This document shows, piece by piece, positions 18,209 to 53,087 of a stretch of 64,000 bases of DNA. Position 1 is the stretch's first letter. Every line of letters starts with the position of its first letter. The notes beneath the pieces are model-generated. The model was not told the DNA's origin. It saw only the letters and a program-made list of their open reading frames with translations, and ran no database searches. The stretch is from Candidatus Omnitrophota bacterium (lineage in GTDB: Bacteria > Omnitrophota > Gorgyraeia > Gygaellales > UBA12090). The position numbers were made by a program, and so were the translations under genes. The DNA is taken from the NCBI GenBank assembly GCA_030674475.1, contig JAUSCZ010000007.1:669-64668 (forward strand), written 5' to 3'.

Positions 18209-18282
18209 TTAGCCCTTTTATTCCAGGTGGCACAGGCATCCTTGCCTGTGTGTACACTGTCCTCTTATTAAAAATCTCTGTA

Positions 18283-19382: not shown

Positions 19383-19448
19383 TCCGCCTACGCGCGCTTT
19401 GCACGCTACGGCGGGTCCGCCGTAGCGAACGAAGTGAGCGTAGGCGGA
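19383..19448. repeat. Small nested-hairpin insertion element (outer inverted repeat TCCGCCTACGC/GCGTAGGCGGA; inner CTACGGCGG/CCGCCGTAG; contains GCGAACGAAGTGAGCG)
   Basis: Absent from the corresponding position of both intact paralogs. The perfect nested inverted repeats are seen directly. Confidence 0.65.
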
Positions 19449-19633: not shown

Positions 19634-19924
19634 ATGCAGAAGAAAACAATTATAAAGATATTGGAAAGGGTTAAGGATTTTTCCCGGCAAAAGTATAAGG
19701 TGGAGATTAAGGGTATATTCGGCTCTTATGTAAGACAGGAGGCTAAAAGAAACAGCGATATAGATATCCTGGTGGATTTTTATAAGGATGCCGATTTATT
19801 AGATCTGTCCGGGTTATCTTTATTCCTGGAGAAAGAATTGAAGCGCAGGGTAGATGTTGTTCCTCTGTCTTCCCTAAGGAAAGAGATACGCCCGAATGTC
19901 TTAAGAGAGGCAATCTATCTATGA
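19634..19924 (+). CDS. Nucleotidyltransferase-domain antitoxin (MNT/MntA of HepT-MNT type II/VII TA system)
   Basis: GIFGSYVRQEAKRNSDIDILVDF is the minimal nucleotidyltransferase motif (GS...DxD). Confidence 0.7.
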   Translation: MQKKTIIKILERVKDFSRQKYKVEIKGIFGSYVRQEAKRNSDIDILVDFYKDADLLDLSGLSLFLEKELKRRVDVVPLSSLRKEIRPNVLREAIYL

Positions 19925-20268
19925 GGAATCATTCTTTGTATCTAAAAGATATAATAGAGGCACTGGATGCGATAGAAGAATTCGCGGAGGGCCTGGAATT
20001 TGAAGAATTCCGTAAAGATGACAAAACTTCCAGCGCGGTAATCAGGAAGTTTGAAATTATAGGAGAAGCATCCAAGAATATTTCAGCTAGCATAAGACGG
20101 AAATATCAGCAGGTGCCTTGGAAAGAGATGGCTGGTATGCGGGATAAACTGATTCACTTTTATTTTGGCGTAAATTATGAGCTTGTGTGGCAGACCATAA
20201 AACACAGGATTCCTCAAATAAGACCTCTTCTTAAAGAAATCCTCAAGGATACTCTTCGTTACACCTAA
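19921..20268 (+). CDS. HepT/DUF86 toxin (HEPN-family RNase partner of MNT)
   Basis: 115 aa, overlaps mnt by 4 nt (ATGA). DUF86-like, with an R(x)4HxY-type motif (MRDKLIHFY). Confidence 0.65.
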   Translation: MRNHSLYLKDIIEALDAIEEFAEGLEFEEFRKDDKTSSAVIRKFEIIGEASKNISASIRRKYQQVPWKEMAGMRDKLIHFYFGVNYELVWQTIKHRIPQIRPLLKEILKDTLRYT

Positions 20269-20530
20269 CTTAATTATGCGGCAATAAGTTAAAATATTTT
20301 ACCAAGAGACAGCATACAAAACTCGTACACGAGGGTAAATATGTCGCGGAAGTTGAGGTGGAGATTCTTGATACCGGAGATGGCTGGTCGCCGTATCTTT
20401 CTCTTGAAGATGCCCAAAAGATAGATGAGGTAAGAGAAGCTTTGCGAGAAGGCGCCCTTCAGCGAGCAACGAAGATTGCCCGTGTATTCAATCTTACCCC
20501 GGTAGCAGTATAATTAAAAATATTATTCTT

Positions 20531-20577
20531 AGGGACGGTTCTGTTTTGGATTAGAGGATCGTCCCGTTTTTATTTTC
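20531..20577 (+). terminator. Hairpin GGGACGGTTCTGTTTTGGATTAGAGGATCGTCCC + GTTTTTATTTT (TAGGGAC...GTCCC palindrome family), putative terminator
   Basis: Seen directly; a homologous copy lies at 21221..21256. Confidence 0.5.
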
Positions 20578-20582
20578 CTGGC

Positions 20583-20611
20583 TTGACAAGGAATGATGTA
20601 TAAGTTATACT
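20583..20611 (+). promoter_or_regulatory. Near-consensus sigma70-type promoter TTGACA-17-TATACT for the AbrB/RelE-like operon
   Basis: gcTTGACAaggaatgatgtataagtTATACT, ~55 nt upstream of the 20669 start. Confidence 0.6.
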
Positions 20612-20668
20612 TTGGATATAAGTAAGTAAGGAAGTAAGGAAATAAGAGAGTAAGGAGGATAAAACATA

Positions 20669-20932
20669 ATGACTATAGTGGATACCGCAAAGATTACCTC
20701 AAAAGGCCAGATTACTATTCCTAACCGGATTAGGAAGATTTTGCATCTTAGCGAAGGTTCATCTTTGGCTTTCGGAGTAGGCCGGGAAGGAGTTTTATTG
20801 ATGCCGTGCAAGGTTACGGCTGACTCGGTATATACCGAGCAGGAATGGGTTAAGATTGAGAAACTGGCCGCTGTCAAGGGTAAGGTTTATAAGAGTTCAA
20901 AGGCCGCCAAAAAACATATCCAAGGGCTATGA
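20669..20932 (+). CDS. AbrB/MazE/SpoVT-family antitoxin
   Basis: MTIVDTAKITSKGQITIPNRIRKILHLSEGSSLAF is a swapped-hairpin AbrB-type DNA-binding N-terminus. Confidence 0.7.
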   Translation: MTIVDTAKITSKGQITIPNRIRKILHLSEGSSLAFGVGREGVLLMPCKVTADSVYTEQEWVKIEKLAAVKGKVYKSSKAAKKHIQGL

Positions 20933-21207
20933 GGTTTGAATTTAAGCCTTCCTTTGACCGGTCAATTAAGGCCTTTCCGGAAAGAGAAAAGCAGGAGTTA
21001 AAGGATGCCGCTTGCCGATTGATAGATGCCTTATCCGGACAAGAGTTAATCCCTAAAGGTATGGGTTTGAAGAAGCTTAGAGGAAATTTCTGGGAGATGC
21101 GCAAAGGTTTAAAGACCAGGATACTTTTTAGGCGCGAGAAAGATTGGCTTGAGTTTATCCTGGCCGGAGATCACAACGATATCAAACGTTTCCTGAGAAG
21201 GGCTTGA
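20929..21207 (+). CDS. RelE/ParE-superfamily toxin (partner of the AbrB-type antitoxin)
   Basis: 92 aa, overlaps the antitoxin by 4 nt. Paralogous to 28777..29070. Confidence 0.6.
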   Translation: MRFEFKPSFDRSIKAFPEREKQELKDAACRLIDALSGQELIPKGMGLKKLRGNFWEMRKGLKTRILFRREKDWLEFILAGDHNDIKRFLRRA

Positions 21208-21283
21208 TTCAGATTTTAGGGACAGTTCTGTATTTAGTTTAGAGAGTCGCCCTATTTTAGTAGAGATGGATTTTAAGCTATTT

Positions 21284-21322
21284 ATGGCGGTCCGCACTAC
21301 CCGGGCCGCCATTTTTATTTTT
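21284..21322 (+). terminator. Rho-independent terminator ATGGCGGTCCGCactacCCGGGCCGCCAT + TTTTATTTTT (copy 2)
   Basis: Hairpin plus T-run immediately downstream of the RelE-like gene. Confidence 0.75.
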
Positions 21323-21374
21323 AACCCGCCCTATTCTTCGGCAATAGCCGTTTTGCGCTTATTTTTTCTCTTTT

Positions 21375-21475: not shown

Positions 21476-21819
21476 TTTAGGCAAAAGATGGCCAACCCAA
21501 AAGATAACCCGGATAAAATCCCGGTAGCGCGCTGTGACAGTAATCAAGCCCTCTCCTTATTGGGAGAGGGTGGGGTGAGGGAATACATAAACCAATTAGT
21601 TCCCCCTCATCCTAACCTTCTCCCGCAGGGGGAGAAGGAAGTAATTGGCAATAACTGTCACAATCAGACTGTGTCGCAATCTCTTAAAATGACCATTTTG
21701 TCATTCTGAGGGAGCAGGGCGACCGAAGAATCTCGTCGTTAATTTAAAAGACGAGATCCTTCGCTAGCGCTCAGGATGACATTATGACACAGTCTGAATG
21801 CAAGAGAAAGGACTTTGTG

Positions 21820-24153
21820 ATGTTTAAAAAACTGATTTCTATTCTTTTGTCTTTTACTTTTATCACCACTCAGCCTGTATTCGCCCAAGGAGTGGCCCAG
21901 CTGAATATGGCCCAATACCTGGGTTCAATGCCGGCTGTTGCGGCAGACCGGTTCCGTCCTTTGCATATGCGCTATTTCTCCTATGATATAGAGAAAGATA
22001 ACTTCCAGCTACTCTTAGATAAAGGAGACAATAAGGATATAAAGGAAGTTGAACTTCAGGAAAAGACCAAGGTTCTGATGGAGTATTTCCAAATTGGCTT
22101 AGCCCTGCCTAATGATAAGTTCTGGGTAAACCTAAGGCCGGATGCCCAAGACCAGATCATTGATCCGGAATTAGAGCAGACTGATTTAGGCAAGATAATG
22201 TTAGAGGCAGACTTGCAGTTAAAGAAGGATACCGCCAGCTTTACCTCACCCCAGACCACAGAAGGCAGACAATACTGGGATAAGCTCTATAAGAAGGCCG
22301 GAGAATTATTCGGCACCGAAAACATCACTATCCCCACCATCACCCGTCCCTGGATAGTCCCGGGCGAGATAATCCTAAGGCAAGGAGAGGATTCAGCCTA
22401 TATCTTTAAGGCCAATATGAAGGTGATGTTAGAGCATGATTATTTGGTCAGTAGGGGCGGGTCGCGAACCGCCCCTACGTATCAACAATACGCCTTTTCC
22501 GACCCCCGGATGAAGGAGTTAAACGAATATTCCACCCAACTTATCAGAGAGCTGATTATCCCCAAGCTGACCAAAGAGGTAAACACCTCCAAAAGATACG
22601 CCGCTCTTCGGCAGGTATTCTTTTCTCTGGTAATGGCCAGATGGTTTAAGGACACTTTCACTGGAAAGCCCGGCCAATATGCCAGCCTGATCGACAGCCA
22701 CAACCTCAACAATCTCACCTCCAAAGAGGCCTGGAGCAAAACCTTCTACTTCAACGAATACAAGAAGTCCTTTGAACAAGGCGAATACAACCTTAAGGAG
22801 AATATCGGCACCCCTTATGGGCAAATAATCAGGAGCTATGTCAGCGGGGGCATCGTAGGCAGTAGTAGCGCAATGACTCAGCATACATACCATAATGGTA
22901 AAAATAATGATGGAAACCCAAAACATCTCGTTGCTGCTATTATTAAACGTGATAAGCGGTTCGGGAATAAAACTGGAAATCTTTATGTTACAATGCACAC
23001 AAATAATGAAATAGTTAAAATGGAAGTAAATAATTCAGGAATGGGCGAAGTAGAGATTATTCCAAAATCAAAAGATTTTAATACGGATAATAAAAAAGGC
23101 TCTTCGCCGATGGAGGCAGGGCAGAAAGATATGGATTCTTTTTCTCTTGAACAGATAGAAGAAATGCGAAAGCTTGAACAAAGATTGTGGGTTATAGTTA
23201 AGGACATTGAAAAGATACTTGATGAAGTGGAATTAAGTAAGCTCCAGAACAAGGGTGAAATTGAGATTACGAATGATGGCTTTAAAGGTATTCATAGAAT
23301 GTTAGCCTATTTAAAGACTCTTACCCGGGAGGGTACAAGAATAGAAATAAATAATGGAGCAATAGATGGAATCGCGGATATGTTTTCTATAATAGGCTTA
23401 GTAGATATTCTGCCGGAAGGATATGAGGTGCGATCAGGACCAAGATTATTAACATTAAGGGGTAGTATTTCTGAGTTAAAACAGCTTCAGGAAGATTGGG
23501 AAAAGTGGGAGGTTAACCCGGAGAATGTGGTAAAAAGAATCGTAGCTCAGATTGGCTCTGCGTCTGAGGAAGATATAAAACTTATTGTAAAAACTTTTCG
23601 GGAAGAGATTAACCGCAACCCTACCGTAGAAGAGGCGGGAGAAATCCTCGGTGATGCTTTTGTGAGTCCTAAAGGTGATGGCGTAAAGGAAATGGCAGGG
23701 GAAAAGATAGCGGAGCTGAAGCAAAAAGCTTCCTCGTCGGCAATGAAATCAAGCAAAATTCCCGAAAATACCGGCGGTATTGATTTCCGTGCCATGAACT
23801 ATATGGTTCAGCCGATGGGGAGTTTTAAGGATTTGCGGTTTGGCCTGCCTACGCTGACCAGCAGCGCGTTAGAGAGGATTGACTTGGATCAGGAGTTAGA
23901 CTCCCTGCGCAATATGGTCAAGGCCGGGCTCGTGCCTTCGGGAGAGAGGGTCAAGGAATACTTAGCCGCCTGCTTTCAGAAAGGTAAGATTGAAGAAAGG
24001 CAGGATGACCTCTTAGTTTGTCTGGCCGAGATCTACCGCCTGGCCGAGGAGGAGAATTTAGAAACCAGCCCGGAACTGCGGGAGTCCCTGGTGATTGTAG
24101 ACACCGGCAAATTCGTCCTCTTGCCTAACAACCAAAAGGTGGGGCTGAATTAA
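21820..24153 (+). CDS. Large secreted protein, paralog A (777 aa; signal peptide MFKKLISILLSFTFITTQPVFAQG; conserved N- and C-terminal domains, divergent centre)
   Basis: N-terminal ~360 aa and C-terminal ~130 aa are near-identical at nucleotide level to paralog B. No known domain recognised. RBS AAAGGA precedes the ATG at 21820, so the ORF-track start at 21784 is probably upstream of the real start. Confidence 0.7.
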   Translation: MFKKLISILLSFTFITTQPVFAQGVAQLNMAQYLGSMPAVAADRFRPLHMRYFSYDIEKDNFQLLLDKGDNKDIKEVELQEKTKVLMEYFQIGLALPNDKFWVNLRPDAQDQIIDPELEQTDLGKIMLEADLQLKKDTASFTSPQTTEGRQYWDKLYKKAGELFGTENITIPTITRPWIVPGEIILRQGEDSAYIFKANMKVMLEHDYLVSRGGSRTAPTYQQYAFSDPRMKELNEYSTQLIRELIIPKLTKEVNTSKRYAALRQVFFSLVMARWFKDTFTGKPGQYASLIDSHNLNNLTSKEAWSKTFYFNEYKKSFEQGEYNLKENIGTPYGQIIRSYVSGGIVGSSSAMTQHTYHNGKNNDGNPKHLVAAIIKRDKRFGNKTGNLYVTMHTNNEIVKMEVNNSGMGEVEIIPKSKDFNTDNKKGSSPMEAGQKDMDSFSLEQIEEMRKLEQRLWVIVKDIEKILDEVELSKLQNKGEIEITNDGFKGIHRMLAYLKTLTREGTRIEINNGAIDGIADMFSIIGLVDILPEGYEVRSGPRLLTLRGSISELKQLQEDWEKWEVNPENVVKRIVAQIGSASEEDIKLIVKTFREEINRNPTVEEAGEILGDAFVSPKGDGVKEMAGEKIAELKQKASSSAMKSSKIPENTGGIDFRAMNYMVQPMGSFKDLRFGLPTLTSSALERIDLDQELDSLRNMVKAGLVPSGERVKEYLAACFQKGKIEERQDDLLVCLAEIYRLAEEENLETSPELRESLVIVDTGKFVLLPNNQKVGLN

Positions 24154-24450: not shown

Positions 24451-24707
24451 TGGTTTCTCCTGATAGTTTAATTATAGCAACAATTTAGGTTAAGGCAACC
24501 CAAAAATAAATATTATCACTCGTGTCCAAATTAGACCATGAATACCGACGACAAAGCAGTTTTAAGATTCCAAAACTGTCATGCCCGCGAAGGCGGGCAT
24601 CCAGACTCTTGAGTCAATTGCGGATTCCCGACAAAAGATTTTGGGAATGATACTGTAACAGCTAATTTGGACAGCAATGAAATATTATAATGAATTTTTT
24701 AGTTGTT

Positions 24708-24748
24708 GATGACGGTCTGGATTACTCGGGCCGCCATTTTTATTTTTG
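24708..24748 (+). terminator. Degenerate copy of the GGCGG..CGGGCCGCC terminator hairpin + TTTTTATTTTT
   Basis: gacggtctggattaCTCGGGCCGCCATTTTTATTTTT; the left arm is eroded. Confidence 0.4.
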
Positions 24749-24927
24749 AAGCTTTCCCGATTTTGTAGCAAGCCTTTTCTGTAACGCAGTATTCATCATC
24801 GGTTTAAGATAAAATTTTGCGCGCTGGGCTAAACTTTACAGGAAAGCTTCTGATTATGGCGATTAAATACAGATTCCAGAGATTTATTACCGACGTAAAA
24901 TCGCTGTAATCTTTTAAAAATCTCTGT

Positions 24928-25016: not shown

Positions 25017-25484
25017 ATGCATAAACCCAAGTTATATTTGGATACAACTATACCCAGCTATGTGTTTAATAGCCATGTTCCCGATAAACAAACAGCTGCC
25101 CGGAAACTCTTTGAATACATTGATAAAGAGAAGGCGGAAGCCTATATCTCTACGGTTGTAGTCCGCGAGCTTAGTAAAACTGGAGAGGACTATCTGAAAG
25201 ATAGGTTGTTTGCTCTAATAAAAGATATGACGGTTCTAGAGGTTACTCAGGAGTGCGTAGAGCTTGCCGGTGAGTATATTCAAAGAGGAATCATACCTAA
25301 AGAAAATATAGATGATGCCTTGCATATTGCCTGCGCGAGCGTTTACGAGATTGATTTTCTAGTCAGCTATAATTTTGAACATATTGTTCGGATAAAAACT
25401 ATTGATAATGTGTCGGCAATAAACGTATTATTGGGATTTAAAACACCGCGTATCATCATTCCCGAGGAGGTAATTGATGTTTAA
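25017..25484 (+). CDS. PIN-domain protein (VapC-like putative RNase toxin)
   Basis: LYLDTTIPSY..., DALHIACASVYEIDFLVSYNFEHI: acidic residues positioned as in the PIN fold. 155 aa. Confidence 0.5.
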   Translation: MHKPKLYLDTTIPSYVFNSHVPDKQTAARKLFEYIDKEKAEAYISTVVVRELSKTGEDYLKDRLFALIKDMTVLEVTQECVELAGEYIQRGIIPKENIDDALHIACASVYEIDFLVSYNFEHIVRIKTIDNVSAINVLLGFKTPRIIIPEEVIDV

Positions 25485-25674: not shown

Positions 25675-25756
25675 AACTTCGATCTGCTTTAGCAGTGTAG
25701 TCTTATCCCGGTAGCAGTATAAATTCAATCATTAGCATACAGAAAAAGTATGGGAT

Positions 25757-25795
25757 GGCGGTCCGCACTACCCGGGCCGCCATTTTTATTTTTAA
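25757..25795 (+). terminator. Rho-independent terminator ATGGCGGTCCGCactacCCGGGCCGCCAT + TTTTATTTTT (copy 3)
   Basis: Identical to the 21284 copy. Confidence 0.75.
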
Positions 25796-25844
25796 CCCGC
25801 CCTATTCTTCGGCAATCGCCGTTTTTCGCTTATTTTTTCCTTTT

Positions 25845-25946
25845 TTTACCCCGCCTTTTCTGTCTTCCGACGACAATCCCTTCCCAGGAAAGCGCTTTCT
25901 CAAAAACCCGCCTTGGCCATTGAAACGGGTAAATTCTGTGGTATAC
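25845..25946 (+). promoter_or_regulatory. Conserved ~70-bp block plus promoter TTGAAA-16-TGgTATACT (copy 3) driving paralog B
   Basis: -35 at 25919..25924 and extended -10 at 25938..25946. Only a ~60-nt leader to the RBS GGGGGA. Confidence 0.6.
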
Positions 25947-26009
25947 TTTAGGCAAAAGATGGCCAACCCAAAAGATAAACCAAATAAAGTTCAAGTAGGG
26001 GGATATAAA

Positions 26010-28325
26010 ATGTTTAAAAAACTGATCTCTATTCTTTTGTCTTTTACTTTTATCACCACCCAGCCCGTATTCGCCCAAGGCGTAGCCCAGCTGAATATGG
26101 CCCAATACCTGGGTTCAATGCCGGCTGTTGCGGCAGACCGGTTCCGTCCTCTGCATATGCGCTATTTATCTTACGATGCGGCTACTGATAATTTCCAGCT
26201 TCTTTTAGATAAAGGGGATGATCAGGATATTAAGGTAGGGAACGGTCGCGACCGTTCCCTACAGGAAAAGACCAAGGTCCTGATGGAGTATTTCCAGATA
26301 GGATTAGCCCTGCCTAATGACAAGTTCTGGGTAAACCTAAGGCCGGATGCCGAAGACCAGATAATTGACCCGGAGTTAGAAAAGACCGATATGGGTAAGA
26401 TAATGCTGGAGTCAGACCTGCAGTTAAAGAAGGATACTGCCGGCTTCACCTCACCCCAGACCACAGAAGGCAGACAATACTGGGATAAGCTTTATAAGAA
26501 AGCCGGAGAACTCTTCGGCACCGAAAACATCACCATCCCCACCATCACCCGTCCCTGGATAGTCCCGGGTGAGATAATCCTAAGGCAAGGCGAAGACTCG
26601 GCCTATATCTTCAAGGCCAATATGAAGGTGATGCTGGAGCATGACTACTTAAGCTCTCAGCCTTCAGCTCTCAGCTCTCAGCAATATAATTTCAAAGACC
26701 CCCGGATGAAAGAGTTGAACGAATACTCCAGCCAACTGATTAGAGAGTTGATTATCCCTAAATTAACCAAAGAGGTAAACACCTCTAAAAGATACGCCGC
26801 CTTAAGACAGGTATTCTTTTCCTTAGTCATGGCCCGCTGGTTTAAGGATACTTTCAGCGGCAAACCTGGCCAATACTCCCAGTTGATTGACAGCCACAAC
26901 CTCAACAACCTCACCTCCAAGGAGGCCTGGTCCAAGACAACCTACTTCAACGAATACAAGAAGTCCTTTGAAAAAGGCGAATACAACCTTAAGGAAGACA
27001 TCTCCACCCCTACCGGCCAGGTGATCAGGAGTTATGTCAGCGGGGGGATTACTGGTTCAAGCAGCGCAATGGGTAAGAATATAACCCATAATAATGGAGA
27101 GCACCCTCTTGATGTTGTTAATATTTTTTATAAAATGCCGAAAGGACATAACTCCGGAAATCTTTTTCTTGTGAAATCCATAGGCGATAAAACAATAGTA
27201 GAAATAGTCTCCTCAAATTCTCCGGAACGCCCAGGCAAAGAAAATATTATAAAGAATGAAGCAAGGGCCGGCTCAGCGCTGATGGAGGCAAAGCCTGCGG
27301 AATTTTTCTCTTTTGAAGAAAGCGAGGAGTTAAGAAAGAATCTTGAACAGAATATGTGGGTAAGGGTGGAGGATATTAAAACAATACTTTCTAACGCCTT
27401 GAATAGCATAGATGTTAATAATGACGCTTTTCCGAATATTCGTAAAGATATTAATAGTATTTTAATGTATTTAAATATTTTTAACAATAGGGATGCAAGA
27501 ATAAAAGGAAAAGATATAGATGAGATTGTGGAAATTCTTTACAAAAAAGGCACCTCCAGCGAGAAGTCCTTGTTTGATATTCTTCCGAAAGGATATAAGG
27601 TATGGTCGGGAGGGCGATCTGTAACATTAAGTGGCAGTGTTTCAGAATTAAGACGGTTCCAGGAAGCTTGGGAAAAGCTAGAAATTGATGCGGAGGCTGT
27701 AGTAAAGAGAATCGTAGGGCAAACGGGTGCTGCGAGTGAGAAATATGTAAAATATATTGTGGAAAGATTCCGGGAAAAGATTGACCGTAACCCTACTATG
27801 CAAGAGACAGGAGAAATTATAGGCTACGTTATTCAGAATCATAAAGGAAATGAGAGCCTGCCGGAAATAGTAGATGAAAAGATAGCGGAGATTATGGCTT
27901 CTTCCTCGATGGAGACAATTTCTAAGTCTGTTCCTAAAAACGCCGGTGGTATTGATTTCCGGACTATGAACTATCTGGTCCAGCCGATGGGGAGTTTTAA
28001 GGATTTGCGGTTTGGCTTGCCTACTTTAACCAGCAGCGCGTTAGAGAGGATTGACCTGGATAAGGAATTAGACTCCCTGCGCGATATGGTCAAGGCCGGG
28101 ATGGTGCCTTCGGGGATGCGGGTCAAGGAATACCTGGCCGCCTGCTTCCAGAAAGGTAAGATTGAGGAAAAGCAGGATGACCTCTTAGTCTGTCTGGCCG
28201 AGATCTACCGCCTGGCTGAGGAGGAGAACTTAGAAACCAGCCCGGAACTGCGGGAGTCCCTGGTAATTGTAGACACCGGTAAATTCGTCCTCATGCCTAA
28301 CAACCAAAAGGTGGGGCTGAGTTAA
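26010..28325 (+). CDS. Large secreted protein, paralog B (771 aa; same signal peptide and conserved termini as paralog A)
   Basis: Nucleotide-level near-identity to paralog A over ~26010..27070 and ~27950..28325, with the centre ~40% aa identity. The ORF-track start at 25755 is a read-through of the upstream module. Confidence 0.7.
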   Translation: MFKKLISILLSFTFITTQPVFAQGVAQLNMAQYLGSMPAVAADRFRPLHMRYLSYDAATDNFQLLLDKGDDQDIKVGNGRDRSLQEKTKVLMEYFQIGLALPNDKFWVNLRPDAEDQIIDPELEKTDMGKIMLESDLQLKKDTAGFTSPQTTEGRQYWDKLYKKAGELFGTENITIPTITRPWIVPGEIILRQGEDSAYIFKANMKVMLEHDYLSSQPSALSSQQYNFKDPRMKELNEYSSQLIRELIIPKLTKEVNTSKRYAALRQVFFSLVMARWFKDTFSGKPGQYSQLIDSHNLNNLTSKEAWSKTTYFNEYKKSFEKGEYNLKEDISTPTGQVIRSYVSGGITGSSSAMGKNITHNNGEHPLDVVNIFYKMPKGHNSGNLFLVKSIGDKTIVEIVSSNSPERPGKENIIKNEARAGSALMEAKPAEFFSFEESEELRKNLEQNMWVRVEDIKTILSNALNSIDVNNDAFPNIRKDINSILMYLNIFNNRDARIKGKDIDEIVEILYKKGTSSEKSLFDILPKGYKVWSGGRSVTLSGSVSELRRFQEAWEKLEIDAEAVVKRIVGQTGAASEKYVKYIVERFREKIDRNPTMQETGEIIGYVIQNHKGNESLPEIVDEKIAEIMASSSMETISKSVPKNAGGIDFRTMNYLVQPMGSFKDLRFGLPTLTSSALERIDLDKELDSLRDMVKAGMVPSGMRVKEYLAACFQKGKIEEKQDDLLVCLAEIYRLAEEENLETSPELRESLVIVDTGKFVLMPNNQKVGLS

Positions 28326-28488
28326 GCGGATTTCTCGCTGAAAGTCATTCTTCAGGGTGGTTCTCTAAGAGAGAACCACCCTGTTTTTATTTGGTAATTG
28401 ACAAAGCTGTATTGTATGCTATACTTATATGTAGAAATGCAGTAATGCGGATAATTATTGTTAGATAACAAGGAGGATATTGTTATGA

Positions 28489-28787
28489 TTGGCATGAAGA
28501 ATATGGCTGTGGTTTCTGAAAGAGGCACGGTTACCATCCCTAATGCTGTAAGAAGGACCGCGCGCATCCGCCCCGGAGACTTGCTTGAGTTCAAGCCGCA
28601 GGGCGATAGCGTGATCTTAAGACATATGATAGTCAGAGGCGCCGGAGAAGGGGACTTTTTGAGCGATAATGAATGGATGGAATTTGATAAGCTGGTAAAT
28701 AAACAGTTAAAAGAAGGCGCGTATAAGAGCTATGGGGACATAAAACAGGCTAAATCGCATTCCCGCAGGCTGATGCGTGGCGCGTGA
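28489..28787 (+). CDS. AbrB/MazE-family antitoxin (second copy)
   Basis: MIGMKNMAVVSERGTVTIPNAVRRTARIRPGDLLEF parallels the 20669 gene. Confidence 0.65.
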
Positions 28788-29070: not shown

Positions 29071-29090
29071 ACCCGGAATTTGCAATAGTA

Positions 29091-29126
29091 ATGGTGGTTT
29101 GGATTACGCGGGCCGCCATTTTTATT
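29091..29126 (+). terminator. Terminator hairpin ATGGTGGTTTGGATTACGCGGGCCGCCAT + TTTTATT between convergent genes
   Basis: Fifth member of the GGCGG..CGGGCCGCC hairpin family. Sits where the RelE-like gene (+) and ppiD (-) converge. Confidence 0.55.
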
Positions 29127-30609
29127 GGTCGGCTGTTTCCGGGGAGGCGGTTGAGGAAGTGATGTATTGCTTGAGGTTGGCCTGGGTGATCAGTTCGCTC
29201 TGCAGGGTGTTAAAGATATTTTGTTTCTTTCTTTCCAGGAGATTATCGGAATAGGTTGCTTTATCCTGCTTGAATTTATCCTGGTCAATTCCGGTGAATT
29301 TATCCGGCTCAATAATAAAACTACTTTTGGCGTCTTCTAAAATCGGGCTTATTTCACCCGGCTTAAGATCAAAGGCGGAATTTAATATACTTTTGTCTAT
29401 ATCCATATCCGGAATTGTTTGATCGCGTTTAAAAGCGGGGGTGGTTTTTAACTCTACCCCTAAGAGCTCCGCGGCTTTTTTTAAGTTTATGGCAGGGTCA
29501 TTCTGGAGGTAGCCGTCAATTTTATTCTTATAATCTTCGGTTTTATTTTTTGCTTCTTCTTTAGCCTTGATTAATTTCAGCGCTTCTTCAGCTTTAGGCT
29601 TTGCCTCTGCTAATTCCGGGATATAGAAATCTTTCTTTTGGGTTACCCGCAGGATATAGACGCCTTGAGCGGTATGGATTACCGGGCTGATTTGCCCGGC
29701 TTTCAGGTTGAAGCAATATTTATAAAATTCCTCGGATTCAATATTTTCCACCGGCTCATCTACGGCAAAGAAGCCGCTTTGGCGATAGGTAATATCTCCG
29801 GAAGCAGAGCTTTTAAGATCATTTGATTTTTTGATTTTGGGATAGAGATTATTCATTTGTTCGGATATGCCTATTCTTTGGGCCTCTTTAGAGTCCGGGG
29901 GGTAGTTGATTCCTATATACTCAATTTTGACCGTGGGAGGGCGTTTAAATTGGTTTGAGTTTTTCTGGTAATAGTCTTTAAGTTCATCTTCGCTTATTTT
30001 TATATCAGAGAGAAAGTTTTTAGAGTTAGTTTGGATATAATGGACGTTTAAGGTCTCATTGTCTTTTTTGTAAGCCTCCAAGACCTCCGTGTCGGTCAGG
30101 GTAATATCTTTGGTGGCCTGGACATAGAGTTTGCGGATAATAAGGTTATTGCGGGTTTGTTCTTCAAATTCGCGGGGTTGGCTGCCCAGGAAATAACGGA
30201 TTATCCTGCCGTAGGCATCCTGATTGAATTTGCCGTCTTTAGAAAATAAAGGATTAGAGGCAATCTCATCAACTACCTCCTGGTTTGACGCGGTGATTTT
30301 TTGTTTTTTGGCCTGTTCCAGCAGGATGAGTTTTATCCAGGCCTGGTTATTCAGGTCAACAAATTGCAGGAGGACATTATAATTTTCTCCGAACCTGAAT
30401 TTGAGGTCATTCAGGCAGGAAAGCCGTATTTTTCTAAATTCCGGGTTAGAAACCCGGCGGCCAAAGACCACTCCGGCATAGTTGGATTCTTTAGAGTTTT
30501 GCTTTCCTGACCCGGCTCCCCAAAGCACAAAGGCGAAGACCATCACCCCGACCATTACAGAGAGGATTATTTTCTGGGCCCGCTTTTTTTGGCGCAATAT
30601 TTTTAACAT
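29122..30609 (-). CDS. ppiD: Membrane-anchored periplasmic peptidyl-prolyl isomerase/chaperone (PpiD/SurA-like, parvulin domain)
   Basis: N-terminal TM anchor (LSVMVGVMVFAFVLW), SurA-N-like region and a parvulin-like segment (GQISPVIHTAQGVYILRV). Confidence 0.6.
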   Translation of the reverse strand: MLKILRQKKRAQKIILSVMVGVMVFAFVLWGAGSGKQNSKESNYAGVVFGRRVSNPEFRKIRLSCLNDLKFRFGENYNVLLQFVDLNNQAWIKLILLEQAKKQKITASNQEVVDEIASNPLFSKDGKFNQDAYGRIIRYFLGSQPREFEEQTRNNLIIRKLYVQATKDITLTDTEVLEAYKKDNETLNVHYIQTNSKNFLSDIKISEDELKDYYQKNSNQFKRPPTVKIEYIGINYPPDSKEAQRIGISEQMNNLYPKIKKSNDLKSSASGDITYRQSGFFAVDEPVENIESEEFYKYCFNLKAGQISPVIHTAQGVYILRVTQKKDFYIPELAEAKPKAEEALKLIKAKEEAKNKTEDYKNKIDGYLQNDPAINLKKAAELLGVELKTTPAFKRDQTIPDMDIDKSILNSAFDLKPGEISPILEDAKSSFIIEPDKFTGIDQDKFKQDKATYSDNLLERKKQNIFNTLQSELITQANLKQYITSSTASPETADQ

Positions 30610-32093: not shown

Positions 32094-32269
32094 TATACTG
32101 TAACATTAATTTTAGATGTTACAGTATATTAGGGGGGCGTGGGGGAGACCGTCCCCCACGATTGGGGGGTGCTCAGCGAACATAGTGAGCGCCGAAGGGG
32201 GGCTTGCCCCCCTAGCGGAAGTGCGACGGAACATTCCTATAATTATTAAGAATTTATGTTACGGAGCAC
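32094..32269 (+). repeat. ~175-bp GC-rich structured repeat element, copy 1 (flanking inverted-repeat hairpin, core GGGGGAGACCGTCCCCC...GGGGGGCTTGCCCCCC, tail ...TTTATGTTACGGAGCACT)
   Basis: The core ~95 bp is ~97% identical to 50425..50520. The 3' tail supplies the in-frame ATG used by the TPR ORF. Confidence 0.7.
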
Positions 32270-33272
32270 TAGGGTGGTCAGGTTTTTAATCTGGTTTTTT
32301 GTAACAGCGTGCGTTCTATCCTTGTCAGGCCGTTTATGGAATAAGGCGCTTAATGTATCTGAAGGCGCCGTTGGATTCGGCGGCTTGAAAGAAAAATCCC
32401 AAACGCAGGCTCAAGCCCATTATATGATGGGCTTATTTTATGAAAACCAGAATAAATTTGATGAGGCAATTGCCGAGTATAAACAAACCCTGGCCTTAGA
32501 AAAAGATATCCCGGCGCCGCGGGTGCGCATCGCCGCGAATCTTATCCGCAAAAACGATTTTCCTAACGCGCTCATAGAACTTCAGGAGGCAAAAAAGCTT
32601 GACCCTGATAATATAGAAACCGGGCTGCTTTTAACCCTCCTGTATACCATCCAGAATTCTTCGGATAAGGCAGTCCAGGAATATGAGGATGTTTTGAAAA
32701 AGGCCTCAAGCGCTGACCCTAAGAATGTTGATATCCTTAAGACCTTGGCCGGCTTGTATTATCAGCAGAAGAAATTCCCGGAGGCGAGTAACCTTTATAA
32801 GCTCGTCCTGGATATTGATAAAAATGATTATGAATCGGTATTTTTGCTGGGGGCTCTTTTAGAGGAGAGCGGTAAAAGAGACGAGGCAGTAGAGAAATTT
32901 AAAGAGGTTTTAAAGCTCAAGCCGGATTACGCTAACGCCCTGAATTCTTTAGGCTATCTCTATGCTGAGGATGGCCGCCAGCTTAACGAGGCTGAGGAGT
33001 TAATCAAAAAAGCCATTTTGATTGAACCGGATAACGGGGCTTATATTGACAGCCTGGGTTGGGTTTATTTTAGAAGAAATGAGCTGGATAAGGCGATTGA
33101 GCATTTGGAGAAAGCCAGCCTTTTGCTTTTCGACCCGCTGATATACGAACATCTTGGGGATGCCTATTTTAAAAAGGGAGCTCAGGATAAAGCCCAGGCC
33201 TCCTGGCAAAAGTCTTTAGAGCTTAATCCCGCGCAAGATAAGCTAAAAGAAAAGTTAGAGAAACTAAAATAA
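32256..33272 (+). CDS. TPR-repeat protein with N-terminal signal/TM segment
   Basis: Multiple 34-aa TPR-like repeats (AxxYxxLG...). The start codon lies inside the repeat-element tail. Confidence 0.65.
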   Translation: MLRSTRVVRFLIWFFVTACVLSLSGRLWNKALNVSEGAVGFGGLKEKSQTQAQAHYMMGLFYENQNKFDEAIAEYKQTLALEKDIPAPRVRIAANLIRKNDFPNALIELQEAKKLDPDNIETGLLLTLLYTIQNSSDKAVQEYEDVLKKASSADPKNVDILKTLAGLYYQQKKFPEASNLYKLVLDIDKNDYESVFLLGALLEESGKRDEAVEKFKEVLKLKPDYANALNSLGYLYAEDGRQLNEAEELIKKAILIEPDNGAYIDSLGWVYFRRNELDKAIEHLEKASLLLFDPLIYEHLGDAYFKKGAQDKAQASWQKSLELNPAQDKLKEKLEKLK

Positions 33273-33325
33273 CCCATTCTTACACCTATGCCTACGAGGC
33301 GCAGGAATGGGTTGAGAAAGCAGGA

Positions 33326-34319: not shown

Positions 34320-35243
34320 ATGGAAATGCTTTATCAGCGCGATGTGTACGGACAGACCTTAATTGAGCTGGGTAAGAAAGATTCTAATATTGTGGTTTTG
34401 GATGCTGACCTTTCCGGCTCAACCCGCACCTGTCTTTTTGCCAAAGAATTTAAGGACAGGTTTGTTAATTTCGGGGTGGCAGAACAGAATATGGTGGCCG
34501 CCTCCGCCGGCCTGGCCAGCTGCGGAAAAATAGTGTTTCTCTCAACCTTTGCCATATTTGCCACCGGGAGGGCCTGGGATCAGGTAAGAAATACCGTTGC
34601 CTATAATAACTTTAACATTAAGATTGTGGCTACTCACGCCGGGGTGAGCGTGGGTCCGGATGGGGCATCGCATCAGGCTTTAGAGGACATTGCCCTGATG
34701 CGTATAGTCCCGACCATGAAGATTATTGTCCCGGCTGACGGGCCCCAGACCCGCGACGCGGTAATCGCGGCTTATACTACTCCGGGCCCGGTATACGTCC
34801 GATTAGGCCGGCCCAAGGTTCCCACGATAACCGCGGATAAAACCTTTGAATTCGGTAAAGCCCAAATTTTGACCCCGGGAAATGATCTGACTATAATCGC
34901 CTGCGGAATAATGGTAAAATCCGCTCTTGAGGCGGCAGGCCGTCTCAAAGAAAAAGGCCTCAGTTGCCGGGTGATTAATATGCATACCGTAAAGCCTGTT
35001 GATTCTCAGGCAATAATAGAAGCGGCGAGGGAAACCAAAGGCATTGTGGTTTGTGAAGAACATACGGTGATGGGCGGGTTGGCGTCAGCGGTAGATGAAA
35101 TCGTGGCTGAGAATTTGCCGGTCAAGGTTATACGCGTAGGGGTAAAGAACCGCTATGGACAGTCCGGAGAACCGGATGAGCTGATTAAGGAATACGGGCT
35201 TTCGGTTGAGGATATCATTAGTGCCTGTGGAAAGATTGTTTGA
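34320..35243 (+). CDS. tktB: Transketolase, C-terminal (pyrimidine-binding) subunit
   Basis: 307 aa with the typical transketolase C-terminal half. Confidence 0.85.
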   Translation: MEMLYQRDVYGQTLIELGKKDSNIVVLDADLSGSTRTCLFAKEFKDRFVNFGVAEQNMVAASAGLASCGKIVFLSTFAIFATGRAWDQVRNTVAYNNFNIKIVATHAGVSVGPDGASHQALEDIALMRIVPTMKIIVPADGPQTRDAVIAAYTTPGPVYVRLGRPKVPTITADKTFEFGKAQILTPGNDLTIIACGIMVKSALEAAGRLKEKGLSCRVINMHTVKPVDSQAIIEAARETKGIVVCEEHTVMGGLASAVDEIVAENLPVKVIRVGVKNRYGQSGEPDELIKEYGLSVEDIISACGKIV

Positions 35244-36190
35244 TCCTTGAAATGATTAAGAAAAAATCGCCGGTGAGCCTTAAAGCGGATAAAAGAATAC
35301 AAAAAATCCCCGGCGGGGTCCAGGTTTTATCTTACGCTAAATTAAATCTTTACTTAGAGATTTTAGATAAACGTCCGGATGGTTACCATAACCTGGAGAC
35401 AATTTTTGAACGCGTATCCTTAGCGGATGAAATAGTTATAAAAAGGGCTCCCGGTAATTCCATAAGAATAGAAACCGATTCTCCGGATATACCTAAAGGC
35501 TCAGGAAATTTAGCGCATCAGGCCGCGGAGCTTTTAAAGAAAGACCTTGGTATCTCTGCCGGCTTGGTGATTAAGATAAAAAAGCGTATTCCGGTAGGCG
35601 CGGGTTTAGGCGGTGGTTCAAGTAATGCCGCCAGTACTCTTTTAGGATTAAATTACTTCTGGAATTTAGGTTTAAGCGCTGAAGAATTAAAAGAGTATGC
35701 CTCGCGCCTGGGTAGCGATGTAGCTTTTTTTGTCTATAATTATCCTTTGGCAATCGGACGCGCAAGGGGAGAGCGGATAGAACCCTGGAGTGGTTTTAAA
35801 AAGAAGCTCTGGCACGTGATAGCCGTTCCTAAATTAAATGTCTCTACCGCTCTAATATACCGGGATTTAGATGTATCGCGCGAACAGACAGGAAATAAAA
35901 AAGCCTTTGGCTCATCAAGGATAAAAAATCTAGGGACGAACGGTAGTTCGTCCCTACGCGTCAAAGATATTTTATTCAATCGCCTTGAGGAAGTAACTTT
36001 TAAAAGATATCCTCAAGTAGGCAGGCTTAAGCGGAATTTAGAAGCGCGAGGACTCAAAAACGCGCTGATGTCCGGCTCCGGCTCCGCGGTCTTTGGGATG
36101 GTGGGAAGCAGAAAGGGGGGGTTGAGAATAGCTAAAATTTTGAAGCGTTCTAAGAATCTCAAGGTCTTTGTCGCGGAAACCGCCGTTTAA
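35240..36190 (+). CDS. ispE: 4-diphosphocytidyl-2-C-methyl-D-erythritol kinase (GHMP kinase)
   Basis: GHMP motif PVGAGLGGGSSNAA. Contains an in-frame palindromic insertion at 35931..35957. Confidence 0.75.
   Translation: MILEMIKKKSPVSLKADKRIQKIPGGVQVLSYAKLNLYLEILDKRPDGYHNLETIFERVSLADEIVIKRAPGNSIRIETDSPDIPKGSGNLAHQAAELLKKDLGISAGLVIKIKKRIPVGAGLGGGSSNAASTLLGLNYFWNLGLSAEELKEYASRLGSDVAFFVYNYPLAIGRARGERIEPWSGFKKKLWHVIAVPKLNVSTALIYRDLDVSREQTGNKKAFGSSRIKNLGTNGSSSLRVKDILFNRLEEVTFKRYPQVGRLKRNLEARGLKNALMSGSGSAVFGMVGSRKGGLRIAKILKRSKNLKVFVAETAV
35931..35957. repeat. Palindrome TAGGGACGAAC-ggta-GTTCGTCCCTA inside the ispE coding sequence (in frame; encodes ...GTNGSSSLR...)
   Basis: Seen directly; a member of the TAGGG...CCCTA family. 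Confidence 0.6.
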
Positions 36191-36236: not shown

Positions 36237-36644
36237 ATGGAAATAACCGAAGTAAGAATATTTTTAAAAGATTCAGTGGATAAAAAACTTAAGGCCTACG
36301 CCACGGTTACATTTGATGATGCTTTTGTGGTAAGGAATATAAAAGTTATCGAGGGCTCCAGCGGTCTATTCATCGCTATGCCTTCGCGTAAAATAAAACA
36401 GCCCTGTCCGAAGTGCGGCTACCGTAATGAAATCCGCAGTAAATACTGTAACCAGTGCGCGGCTCAACTTCCTTTGGTTTCGGAGCCGATTACAGGTGAG
36501 TCTCAGGCCTCGGATATGCAGGCTGAACATAAGGATATCGCTCATCCCATAACCCAGATTTTCCGGGAACAGCTTCAAAAGAAGGTCATTGAGGCCTACG
36601 AGCAGGAAAAGAAAAAGGGACCCCGCGTAGCGGTTAAAGAGTAG
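36237..36644 (+). CDS. spoVG: SpoVG-family protein with an inserted C4 zinc-ribbon (CPKCG...CNQC)
   Basis: MEITEVRIFL...FVVRNIKVIEGSSGLFIAMPSRK ... DIAHPIT match SpoVG. A ~45-aa insert with CxxC-x14-CxxC replaces the usual short loop. Confidence 0.7.
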   Translation: MEITEVRIFLKDSVDKKLKAYATVTFDDAFVVRNIKVIEGSSGLFIAMPSRKIKQPCPKCGYRNEIRSKYCNQCAAQLPLVSEPITGESQASDMQAEHKDIAHPITQIFREQLQKKVIEAYEQEKKKGPRVAVKE

Positions 36645-36672
36645 TTAATAGTTTATGGTTTATAGTTTATCC

Positions 36673-36701
36673 GTAGGGGCAGGTTCCGAACCTGCCCCTA
36701 C
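36673..36701. repeat. Palindrome GTAGGGGCAGGTTCCGAACCTGCCCCTAC, flanked by GTTTATGGTT.../...AACCATAAAC inverted repeats
   Basis: Seen directly downstream of spoVG. Confidence 0.7.
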
Positions 36702-36732: not shown

Positions 36733-36803
36733 TGCCCGGTAGTGTAATGGTAGCACACGAGAATTTGGATCTCGGCGTTGAGGTTCGAGCCCTCACCGGG
36801 CAA
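36733..36803 (+). tRNA. tRNA-Gln (anticodon UUG)
   Basis: Folded by hand: 7-bp acceptor TGCCCGG/CCGGGCA, U8, D-stem GTGT/GCAC, anticodon stem CGAGA/TCTCG with loop AUUUGGA, T-arm TGAGG-TTCGAGC-CCTCA, discriminator A. CCA is not encoded. Confidence 0.75.
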
Positions 36804-36810
36804 TGGTTCG

Positions 36811-36906
36811 ACGCGCTCCGACGGCATTTGCCGTCGGAGCTTGCTCACCATTTGTAAGCGGCGAACCATCCCGAGCAAGCGACGAACGTAGTGAGGAGCG
36901 CGTCGA
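36811..36906. repeat. Nested-hairpin element (outer inverted repeat CGACGCGCTC/GAGCGCGTCG; inner CTCCGACGGCA/TGCCGTCGGAG; GCTTGCTC/GAGCAAGC) carrying a CGAACGTAGTGAGG motif
   Basis: Seen directly between tRNA-Gln and the GIY-YIG gene. Related in architecture and motif to the 19383 element. Confidence 0.6.
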
Positions 36907-36913
36907 GGGATAT

Positions 36914-37192
36914 ATGTGGTATGTTTATATGTTAAAATGTCAAGACGGTGCAATTTATACAGGTATTACCGATGACATCGCAAGACGCTTTAAGGAACAC
37001 GCGCAAGGTAAAGGCGGACATTACACGAATTGCAACAGGCCAAGAGAAGTTTTGTATAAAGAGCCTTTTGAGGATAGATTGGACGCAGAGCAACGTGAAC
37101 AACAGATTAAACGTTGGAGCAAGGTAAAGAAGCTGGCTTTAATCGGGGGCGATAAGAGTGAATTGATAAACTTGAGTAAATCTCGAGATTAG
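36914..37192 (+). CDS. GIY-YIG nuclease-domain protein (UPF0213/YhbQ-like)
   Basis: MWYVYMLKCQDGAIYTGITDDIARRFKEHAQGKG is a canonical GIY-YIG motif. The start at 36914 is preferred over the 36803 ORF start, which overlaps the tRNA. Confidence 0.75.
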   Translation: MWYVYMLKCQDGAIYTGITDDIARRFKEHAQGKGGHYTNCNRPREVLYKEPFEDRLDAEQREQQIKRWSKVKKLALIGGDKSELINLSKSRD

Positions 37193-37204
37193 CCAATCAA
37201 AAAA

Positions 37205-39551: not shown

Positions 39552-39637
39552 TGATAAATATTAGTAACCAGTAACCAGTAACCAGTTGTTAGTAACTAGA
39601 AAAATTTTCTGGTTTCTCCCGAACGAAGTGAGGGTAT

Positions 39638-40345
39638 ATGGAAGAGATAATTTTGGAAGCGCAAATAAGAAAAGATAGGGGCACAGGCAGGGTTAATCGT
39701 CTGCGTAAGCAGGCAATTATCCCGGCAGTGGTTTACGGCGAGGGACGAAAAACGCTTACCATACAGGTGCGTTCAAAGGATTTTGTGAATTTGATGTCGG
39801 CGCATCATGGTGAGTCTTTTGTTTTGAACCTGAGGATAAAAGAAGACCTGAAAAATGAAGACAAGGCGGTTTTGATCAAGCAGATCCAGCATAATCCGGT
39901 CACCGACGATATAGTGCATATTGATTTTAATGAGATTTCTCTGACTAAAAAAATAAGGGTAAAGGTTCCGGTTGCCGCCAAGGGTGAGTCTGTCGGGGTT
40001 AAGCAGGACGGCGGGGTATTAGACCATGTCCTCTGGGAGATTGAGGTTGAGTGTTTGCCTACCCAGATACCCAAATCAGTTGAGGTGGATGTTACCGCTT
40101 TAAAAGTGGGTGATTCTATTCATGTCCGGAATCTGGTTATCCCTCAAGGCTTGAAGGTGTTTAATGACCCTGAAGCGACAGTATTGGCGGTGGTCGCTCC
40201 GACCAAGGAAGAAGCCGCGCCAACAGCTGAAGAAGCATTGGCAGCAGGGGCAAAGGCTGAGCCTGAAGTGATTAAGGAGAAGAAGGAAAAGGCCGAAGGC
40301 GCGGAGGGTGCCTCTACCAAGACAGCTCCGGGAGAGAAGAAGTAG
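39638..40345 (+). CDS. rplY: 50S ribosomal protein L25 / general stress protein Ctc
   Basis: 235 aa bL25/Ctc family with an acidic/Lys-rich C-terminal tail. Confidence 0.8.
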   Translation: MEEIILEAQIRKDRGTGRVNRLRKQAIIPAVVYGEGRKTLTIQVRSKDFVNLMSAHHGESFVLNLRIKEDLKNEDKAVLIKQIQHNPVTDDIVHIDFNEISLTKKIRVKVPVAAKGESVGVKQDGGVLDHVLWEIEVECLPTQIPKSVEVDVTALKVGDSIHVRNLVIPQGLKVFNDPEATVLAVVAPTKEEAAPTAEEALAAGAKAEPEVIKEKKEKAEGAEGASTKTAPGEKK

Positions 40346-40370
40346 TGACAGCACATTGTGCTGTCACTAC

Positions 40371-50345: not shown

Positions 50346-50386
50346 TTTCTCGCCAAATTTAAAATAGGCTTTCCTTTCCTGTGCTA

Positions 50387-50561
50387 CTACATTGTGACAT
50401 TAGTTTATGTCACAATGTAGTAAGGGGGTGTGGGGGAGACCGTCCCCCACGATTGGGGGGTGCTCAGCGAACGAAGTGAGCGCCGAAGGGGGGCTTGCCC
50501 CCCTAGCGGAAGTGCGAAGTGACATTCATTCGATTATCAAGTATTTATGTCACGGAGCACT
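50387..50561 (+). repeat. ~175-bp GC-rich structured repeat element, copy 2 (flanking inverted repeat TACATTGTGACAT/ATGTCACAATGTA; same core as copy 1; tail ...TTTATGTCACGGAGCACT)
   Basis: Core nearly identical to 32135..32230. The tail again supplies an in-frame ATG (ORF-track start 50547) upstream of lpxI. Confidence 0.7.
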
Positions 50562-50605
50562 ATTGATGGGATAGCGCGGGGCAGGCAATCAAGGAAAGGC
50601 CAAAG

Positions 50606-53026: not shown

Positions 53027-53087
53027 CTTCCAGTTTCCAGTTTCCAGTTTCCAGCTTCCAGCTTCCAGCTTTCAGCTTCCAGCTTCT
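53027..53087. repeat. Tandem heptamer repeat (C/T)TTCCAG x ~8, with an upstream complementary GGAAG-rich arm
   Basis: Seen directly between htpX and trpB (cttccagtttccagtttccagtttccagcttccagcttccagctttcagcttccag). Confidence 0.8.

Follow-up and report, generated by a model that had tools for sequence, protein, structure and literature searches.

Short palindromes that recur both between and within protein-coding genes raise two questions: whether the DNA hairpin or the encoded peptide is the conserved object, and how such a sequence comes to be dispersed. We addressed these questions in a 64,000-nucleotide (nt) stretch of contig JAUSCZ010000007.1 (hereafter referred to as the window), from the assembly GCA_030674475.1 of a Candidatus Omnitrophota bacterium. 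A preliminary description of this DNA had listed eight palindromes with (G)TAGGG…CCCTA(C) ends, three of them in frame within genes, had compared them with Rickettsia palindromic elements (RPEs) and had implied that they were new. Here we report an analysis of their anatomy, their occurrence in close relatives and other phyla, and their association with transposase genes. The elements are likely to be double-foot repetitive extragenic palindromes (REPs) of the type that belongs to subclass 2.4 of the REP-associated tyrosine transposases (RAYTs), dispersed in this Omnitrophota lineage and probably mobilized by a RAYT as single-stranded DNA (ssDNA) hairpins. They thus reveal no new kind of element, and represent a described class of REP, seen here in Omnitrophota.

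Hairpins of the window

Five palindromes of 26–29 nt, at positions 4180, 22451, 26235, 35931 and 36673, have (G)TAGGG…CCCTA(C) ends and are perfect or near-perfect, and a sixth palindrome at 40342–40370, absent from the preliminary list, has the same GTAG…CTAC ends around a different stem. Their anatomy is that of a REP: a G+C-rich stem bounded by GTAG, the guide tetranucleotide of the RAYT, and by the complementary CTAC, with three G–C pairs beside the foot. The copies at 4180, 22451, 26235, 36673 and 40342 present GTAG at the hairpin foot on both strands, in agreement with the foot pattern GT[AG]G. The arrangement GTAG-GGG…CCC-CTAC, that is, a double foot with three consecutive G–C pairs at the bottom of the stem, occurs in five window copies. 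The stems span 11–14 base pairs (bp) and their variants keep the pairing, as in the short G+C-rich palindromes of GTAG REPs. When folded as ssDNA, the members reach −12 to −15 kcal/mol (z −4.5 to −7.2), and none of 200 shuffles was equally stable. A census of GT[AG]G…C[TC]AC hairpins found six in the window, compared with a mean of 0.02 in 100 dinucleotide shuffles, and the looser pattern TAGGG-N10-30-CCCTA gave seven matches against 2.06 expected. The copy number is six to seven in 64 kb, and relatives carry further copies at other sites.

Three of the six copies lie outside, or at the end of, coding sequence (no strand is assigned to any of the six). The double-foot REP at 4180–4207 (GTAGGGGCGGTTCGCGAACCGCCCCTAC; 14-bp stem, z −5.65) is intergenic, 2 nt past the stop codon of a Cu-oxidase_4 gene (3423–4178) and upstream of a flavodoxin-like gene (4235). 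The double-foot REP at 36673–36701 (GTAGGGGCAGGTTCCGAACCTGCCCCTAC; 14-bp stem, z −7.2 and −7.3), located between spoVG (36237–36644) and a tRNA-Gln gene (36733–36803), forms the apex of a larger hairpin built from TAGTTTA heptamer repeats. The 29-nt double-foot variant at 40342–40370 (GTAGTGACAGCACATTGTGCTGTCACTAC; z −6.3) has both feet, but its stem bottom reads TGA…TCA; the L25 gene (39638–40345) uses its TAG as a stop codon. The remaining three copies are in frame within genes. The double-foot REP at 22451–22478, with one G/A mismatch beside the loop, lies in a gene for a secreted protein, paralog A (21784–24153), and the double-foot variant at 26235–26262 (GTAGGGAACGGTCGCGACCGTTCCCTAC; 14-bp stem) lies in paralog B, whose longest open reading frame (ORF) spans 25755–28325 and whose true start is near 26010. 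The REP at 35931–35957 (11-bp stem) lies in ispE (35240–36190); on the + strand its foot has a C in place of the 5′ G, and only the − strand carries an intact GTAG foot.

The eight palindromes first listed were thus narrowed to five of the six copies described above. The candidate at 20531 folds weakly (z −2.7), the one at 21221 folds no better than shuffled sequence (z −0.9), and both are without the CTAC foot; we rejected these two, which are alike, carry T-rich tails and lie on either side of a MazE/RelE-like toxin–antitoxin pair. The eighth, placed at 57778, was displaced: a GTAG-footed hairpin begins at 57765 and is part of a compound structure at 57765–57820 (+ strand; z −4.4), in which an outer stem GTAGCGG…CCGCTAC surrounds two small hairpins. 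This intergenic structure is possibly related, and its membership of the REP family is uncertain. Its 535-nt spacer also holds a small Cys-rich, zinc-ribbon-like ORF (57530–57678; MAEKGYCMKCKASKE…CVDCSTGMYKILGKK).

Such structures could be ordinary regulatory hairpins, either intrinsic terminators or RNA stability elements, that look alike by convergence, and the copies at 4180, 36673 and 40342 do lie closely downstream of + strand genes. However, no T-run follows the copies at 4180, 22451, 26235, 36673 and 40342 on the + strand, and a terminator scan called the 35931 copy only, on the − strand, antisense inside ispE. Three copies lie inside ORFs, and the sequence identity across phyla described below goes far beyond what convergence would produce, making this explanation extremely improbable. 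A search of the window against Rfam at the gathering threshold returned the tRNA-Gln only, with no match at the hairpins. Neither a target-site consensus nor flanking direct repeats were found around the window copies or around 123 copies from other genomes. A miniature inverted-repeat transposable element, in the sense of a cut-down DDE transposon, was considered and rejected, as the whole element is a single hairpin with no flanking direct repeats in either set.

The same hairpin in other phyla and in RAYT genes

A motif scan with GTAGGGGCGG-N6-10-CCGCCCCTAC over one genome per species (596 Gb) found at least 119 loci, compared with about three expected by chance according to our own estimate for 596 Gb. 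The matches listed come from Chloroflexota, Desulfobacterota, Acidobacteriota, Nitrospirota, Nitrospinota, Planctomycetota, Cyanobacteriota, Bacillota, Bacteroidota, Patescibacteria and Omnitrophota (L059 and L071; loci are designated L followed by three digits), among others. Within this same set the flanks are unrelated between loci, and 113 of 123 copies form at least two pairs in addition to those of the fixed arms, compared with 7.7 expected, so that the proposal of interiors that vary while staying self-complementary holds outside the window as well as within it. Copies in other phyla, among the matches listed, are depleted from long ORFs (22% versus 74%).

Clustering of the ORFs at the at least 119 hairpin loci yielded a sole cluster that overlaps the hairpin, the IS200-like Y1_Tnp family PF01797. 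The other clusters are either large and kilobases away, or small, adjacent and made up of common enzymes such as short-chain and aldehyde dehydrogenases. A GIY-YIG gene beside the 36673 copy was considered as a partner of the hairpin and rejected, there being no GIY-YIG cluster among these ORFs. Five copies, among the matches listed, are in frame in Y1_Tnp genes directly past the HuH motif (L031, L076, L098 and two in L117), in the context …VVMPNHLHGI…GRGGSRTAPT…, and the hairpin DNA is identical where the surrounding Y1 proteins are merely 53–64% identical. Among NCBIfam models, these proteins match NF047646 (REP-associated tyrosine transposase) best, and in the Protein Data Bank they match E. 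coli TnpA-REP (4ER8) alone. They have thousands of homologs, which bear the source-database name ‘REP element-mobilizing transposase RayT’. Most of the top homolog matches carry RGGSRTAPT, the frame-3 reading of the 4180 copy, which is partly a product of how the search was constructed. The 4180 copy itself is identical over 28 of 28 nt to the copy within the RAYT genes of L098, L117 and L130–L132.

A second search was independent of the repeat: the insert was deleted from 17 RAYT query sequences, and metagenomes were scanned with these queries and the patterns WQRNY[YW]E and MPNHxH[GS][IV]x[VI]. Half of the 80 RAYT genes kept (40 of 80) contain an intact GTAGGG…CCCTAC hairpin, 234–390 nt into the gene, and 16 of 80 have a hairpin within 150 nt of a gene end. 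The in-gene hairpins are read in two frames (21 versus 20), and in-gene and flanking copies share interiors specific to their locus, for example in L153, L156, L160, L170 and L192. This two-frame reading, along with the repeat-independent association, indicates that the conserved object is the DNA hairpin, as the preliminary description had supposed, and that the hairpin is tied to a RAYT family. The proteins, of 165–230 amino acids (aa), have the motifs NH[LVIMA]H, WQRNYYEH and YI..NP and a variable insert.

These features correspond to a published class. Quentin et al. (BMC Genomics 19:475, 2018; PMC6006769) equate TnpA-REP subclass 2.4 with RAYT group 4 of Bertels et al.; its enzymes are about 194 aa long, carry NH[IFV]H, WQ and YIxNNP motifs and vary in an insert that follows the HuH motif. 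The same paper describes REPs that are long, with three G–C pairs at the stem bottom, ‘double foot’ REPs with a 5′ GT[AG]G and a 3′ C[TC]AC, and a scattered occurrence in Cyanobacteria, Bacteroidetes and various other phyla. The double foot, the G–C stem bottom, the spread over many phyla and the identity of the 4180 copy to RAYT-gene copies all agree with that account, and the association between REP and gene is observed for the repeat family in RAYT genes from elsewhere. The correspondence has limits: the paper stresses Cyanobacteria and Bacteroidetes and does not name Omnitrophota in the parts that we read, a high share of the copies analysed here lies inside non-transposase genes, and the window has no RAYT.

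A new Omnitrophota-specific family of mobile palindromes, unrelated to REPs and RAYTs and analogous to RPEs, as the preliminary description had read them, would also suit elements that are dispersed, in frame and variable in presence between close relatives, and a 64-kb window with no transposase. However, an identical 28-mer occurs in many phyla and within RAYT genes, and the termini, the three G–C pairs at the stem bottom and the double foot fit the published description (PMC6006769). We therefore regard a separate family as very unlikely, and the novelty originally implied gives way to assignment of the elements to double-foot REPs.

Omnitrophota are grouped with the Planctomycetes–Verrucomicrobia–Chlamydiae (PVC) superphylum. 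GTAG-tagged REPs have been reported from several phyla, including the PVC superphylum, by Di Nocera, De Gregorio and Rocco (BMC Genomics 14:522, 2013; PMC3733652), who found REPs entirely within ORFs and in frame in known genes, in greatest number in Opitutus terrae (PVC superphylum), as well as feet whose TAG serves as a stop codon. In-frame intragenic copies are thus not new either. The window elements share with this GTAG superfamily the tag, the short G+C-rich stem-loop, compensatory stem variants, in-frame copies and a TAG stop (40342), whereas the tag in that superfamily is unpaired at one end and the stems are mostly of 6–9 bp, compared with a tag paired at both ends and stems of 11–14 bp here. 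E. coli REPs, which occur in bacterial interspersed mosaic elements (BIMEs) with TnpA-REP (4ER8; Messing et al. 2012, PMC3479197), involve the same enzyme superfamily and a GTAG guide at the hairpin foot, but are imperfect, bulged, single-footed and of subclass 2.2, with no in-gene copy known in that tnpA. The subterminal hairpins of IS200/IS605 elements are likewise ssDNA hairpins recognized by a Y1 HuH enzyme without target duplication, but they flank the transposase gene as the left and right ends of a 0.7–2-kb element, whereas the repeat unit in the window is the hairpin alone, at 26–29 nt.

The comparison with RPEs is a fair analogy in one respect, as both are palindromic repeats that persist in frame in protein-coding genes. 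It does not extend to membership: RPE-1 insertions are longer, RPE-4 and RPE-6 are tagged REPs of the CGTC superfamily (PMC3733652), and the window elements are 26–29 nt long, GTAG-tagged, without sequence relation to RPEs and from an unrelated lineage. The element belongs to a described class, reasonable though the analogy is. Our literature searches with the literal repeat sequence returned unrelated papers only, and those on Omnitrophota palindromic repeats returned nothing specific.

Polymorphism, in-frame copies and mobilization

A comparison with relatives that are 84–92% identical in IspE revealed presence, absence or decay of the hairpin at 35931, 36673, 40342 and 26235. Of the relatives, L125 has the 36673 REP, and L004, L126 and L002/L003 lack it; L124/L125 have the 40342 REP, and L002 and L004 lack it, keeping only the AAG TAG of the L25 gene end. 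Relatives in turn carry GTAG/GTGG hairpins at sites that are empty in the window (L002 5857–5902 and L004 6866–6893). The elements form a dispersed and polymorphic hairpin family in this Omnitrophota lineage, and as to the dispersal the preliminary account stands.

The copy in ispE, a gene with GHMP kinase domains whose homologs bear the name Candidatus Omnitrophota, encodes residues 231–239 (LGTNGSSSL). IspE proteins 84–92% identical to that of the window fall into one group with the nine-residue segment NLGTNG[GS]S.L and a second in which the segment is three residues shorter and unrelated (KAGLK--KFEV). At the DNA level, the window and L001 have an intact hairpin, and L124/L125 one with two G·T-type changes; L004 and L127 hold decayed copies, and L002/L003/L126 have none and are 9 nt shorter there, with unrelated sequence. 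In an AlphaFold2 model of IspE the predicted local distance difference test (pLDDT) score is below 50 over residues 218–245, a span that contains the insert, so the insert sits in a variable linker that is predicted to be disordered, where it is tolerated.

Paralogs A and B, the former 100% identical to the NCBI protein Q7J72_00695, are about 90% identical in DNA around both of their hairpin sites. At site 1, B has the hairpin-encoded VGNGRDRSL where A has EVEL, and most family members have E[VAGD]EL; the DNA has the hairpin in B and an 11-nt palindrome, AAGTTGAACTT, in A. Only one ortholog shares the hairpin-encoded segment with B: L211, with a decayed copy (GTAGGGAACGGTCCCGACCGTTCCTTC) at the same site. 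At site 2, a hypervariable loop, the hairpin of A encodes SRGGSRTAPT, and A has VSRGGSRTAPTY where B has SSQPSALSS; the DNA has the hairpin in A and AGCTCTC heptamer repeats in B. At this site, which L002 does not reach, family members show a short unrelated sequence, in most cases LKDSATYNFK. An intact REP occupies the same codon of site 2 in L210, a 67%-identical member from another metagenome, so that the same loop of this very large secreted protein family is occupied by a REP in at least two members. All three genes keep their reading frame, as first proposed.

These comparisons bear on the possibility that the palindromic segments are ancestral, conserved peptide-coding sequences whose palindromy is incidental, an explanation in line with the recurrence of RGGSRTAPT across many RAYT proteins and two proteins of the paralog family. 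Against it, RAYT genes use two different frames for the same DNA, the DNA is identical in proteins that are just 53–64% identical around it, and orthologs and paralogs either lack the segment or hold unrelated sequence at its site. The ortholog, paralog and two-frame data thus refute an ancestral peptide, to which we assign a vanishingly small probability. Because the corresponding sites lack the hairpin or hold unrelated sequence, the intragenic copies are derived; they are lineage-specific additions in variable, poorly structured loops, as the preliminary description had anticipated in reading the elements as in-frame mobile palindromes, a view that is broadly right.

By analogy with the established biochemistry of Y1 HuH enzymes, namely E. 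coli TnpA-REP and IS200/IS605 TnpA, a mobilization pathway can be proposed for double-foot REPs. The palindrome would fold into a hairpin when the DNA becomes single-stranded, for example at replication forks; a RAYT dimer would then bind the hairpin, read the GTAG foot, and cut and rejoin the strand, so that the hairpin could be copied or moved elsewhere. Surviving copies would lie mostly between genes. In coding DNA, copies may persist only where the reading frame is maintained, the frame in use contains no TAG and the 9–12 extra residues fall in a tolerant surface loop, a filter that the pattern in IspE and the two secreted paralogs suggests. Copies would afterwards decay through point mutation.

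Several observations weigh against the assignment to RAYT-mobilized REPs. The 64-kb window encodes no RAYT or other transposase, and a cognate RAYT in this organism is for that reason assumed. Among the RAYT loci of the metagenome scan, none is flanked by close counterparts of the window genes, so the scan identified no Omnitrophota RAYT. The Y1 proteins score below the equivalog cut-off of NF047646 (68–76 versus 80 bits). Filled and empty sites differ by +9, +9, +9 or +15 nt or by nothing, never by a clean 28–29 nt; the in-frame insertions first described hold for the frame, but they are not clean, as the alleles differ by +9 or +15 nt with local replacement. In two cases the hairpin stands in place of a pre-existing small palindrome or hairpin apex. 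Three of the six window copies are intragenic, compared with 22% in long ORFs elsewhere among the matches listed, although the numbers are small. Finally, according to the abstract of PMC8266576, no experiment shows in vivo transposition of any REP.

Some of these points would also suit orphan or relic REPs, spread by a RAYT that has since been lost or that was briefly active after horizontal transfer, and persisting by drift or through host use, for example as mRNA 3′-end stabilizers or protein-binding sites. Copies are decaying in L004, L127 and L211, no RAYT is present in the window or in about 100 kb of syntenic DNA from relatives, and REPtrons are missing from some REP-bearing strains (PMC3733652). 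However, several copies are still perfect 14-bp palindromes, and sites differ between relatives just 8–16% apart in IspE, which suggests recent gain. We consider the relic explanation improbable on balance, and favour double-foot REPs that are mobilized by a RAYT.

Neighbouring features and wider meaning

The window, of about 45% G+C, has almost every gene on the + strand. Paralogs A and B and the region at 18488–19216 belong to a very large protein family, every organism-named match of which is from Omnitrophota and which has at least ten members in this metagenome-assembled genome. Its proteins have a signal peptide and a conserved N-terminal domain (about 350 aa, unmatched in Pfam) that is fused to diverse C-terminal parts (DnaJ, HEAT, phosphoglycerate kinase and GAPDH domains, among others). 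A terminator-like hairpin repeat, ATGGCGGTCCGC…GGGCCGCCATTTTT, occurs in five copies (18158–18215, 21270–21327, 24695–24752, 25741–25798 and 29077–29134), two of which head a leader of about 250 nt, 91% conserved, before paralogs A and B; this leader is misread as the N terminus in the longest ORF of paralog B. Toxin–antitoxin-type genes are interleaved with the paralog copies (19921–21207, 25017–25484 and 28458–28787) and comprise a HepT-like RNase, a MazE-like antitoxin with a small partner ORF, a PIN domain and another MazE. Many tandem arrays, mostly intergenic, are built from 7-nt units that differ from one array to the next (26652–26682, 36642–36670, 39563–39586, 53027–53086, 55120–55148 and 61723–61754). 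The AGCTCTC array inside paralog B occupies the same loop as the REP of paralog A, and the arms around the 36673 REP are heptamer repeats too.

Hairpins with inverted feet (CTAC…GTAG) are found at 19404–19427, 33273–33313 and 50385–50422, and at 7076–7112 in L002. The hairpin located between the TPR gene and the transketolase gene is a polymorphic element as well: L002/L003 have it in perfect form, the window in decayed form and L124/L125 not at all. Immediately 3′ of tRNA-Gln lies a hot spot for small cassettes, occupied by the GIY-YIG gene in the window (36804–37204) and in L002/L003 (L002 10552–11008), a 23S_rRNA_IVP (four-helix-bundle) gene in L004 (11544–12059), a 267-nt non-coding insert in L124/L125 (L124 8928–9194) and 12 nt only in L126 (2588–2599). 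A 156-nt intergenic repeat, 88% identical between its copies, lies upstream of the TPR gene (32116–32271) and of lpxI (50407–50562); the former copy matches the full model of Rfam RF02937 (Clostridiales-2 RNA), below the gathering score (42.5 versus 58.6 bits). At 15895–17934, the beta subunit of a pyruvate/2-oxoacid:ferredoxin oxidoreductase (TPP_enzyme_C) is split by an intein with a LAGLIDADG homing-endonuclease domain, as matched in Pfam.

With the assignment to double-foot REPs, a candidate phylum known from metagenomes alone joins the hosts of RAYT-type REPs. The comparison of close relatives also provides clean natural examples of REP gain and decay in essential genes such as ispE, from which the activity of REPs could be dated and the tolerance of proteins for hairpin-encoded inserts of 9–12 residues studied. 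In annotation, the assignment accounts for the odd peptides RGGSRTAPT, VGAxxxPPL and VGAGxKPAPT that recur in the predicted proteins of many uncultured bacteria.

A more speculative extension, to which we give a rather low probability, is that the REP inside the RAYT gene acts as a seed copy travelling with the horizontally transferred gene, and that in Omnitrophota the hairpins are pasted preferentially into small hairpins and repeat-prone loops, including coding ones. Seeding of this kind, if true, would explain why one 28-nt REP is common to more than 15 phyla, whereas classical REPs are genus-specific, and preferential pasting, if true, would make REPs a source of loop diversity and not purely extragenic passengers. 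The interest of this locus, though mild, lies in the identical 28-mer over many phyla, in the possible seeding by an in-gene copy and in the repeated occupation of one hypervariable loop.

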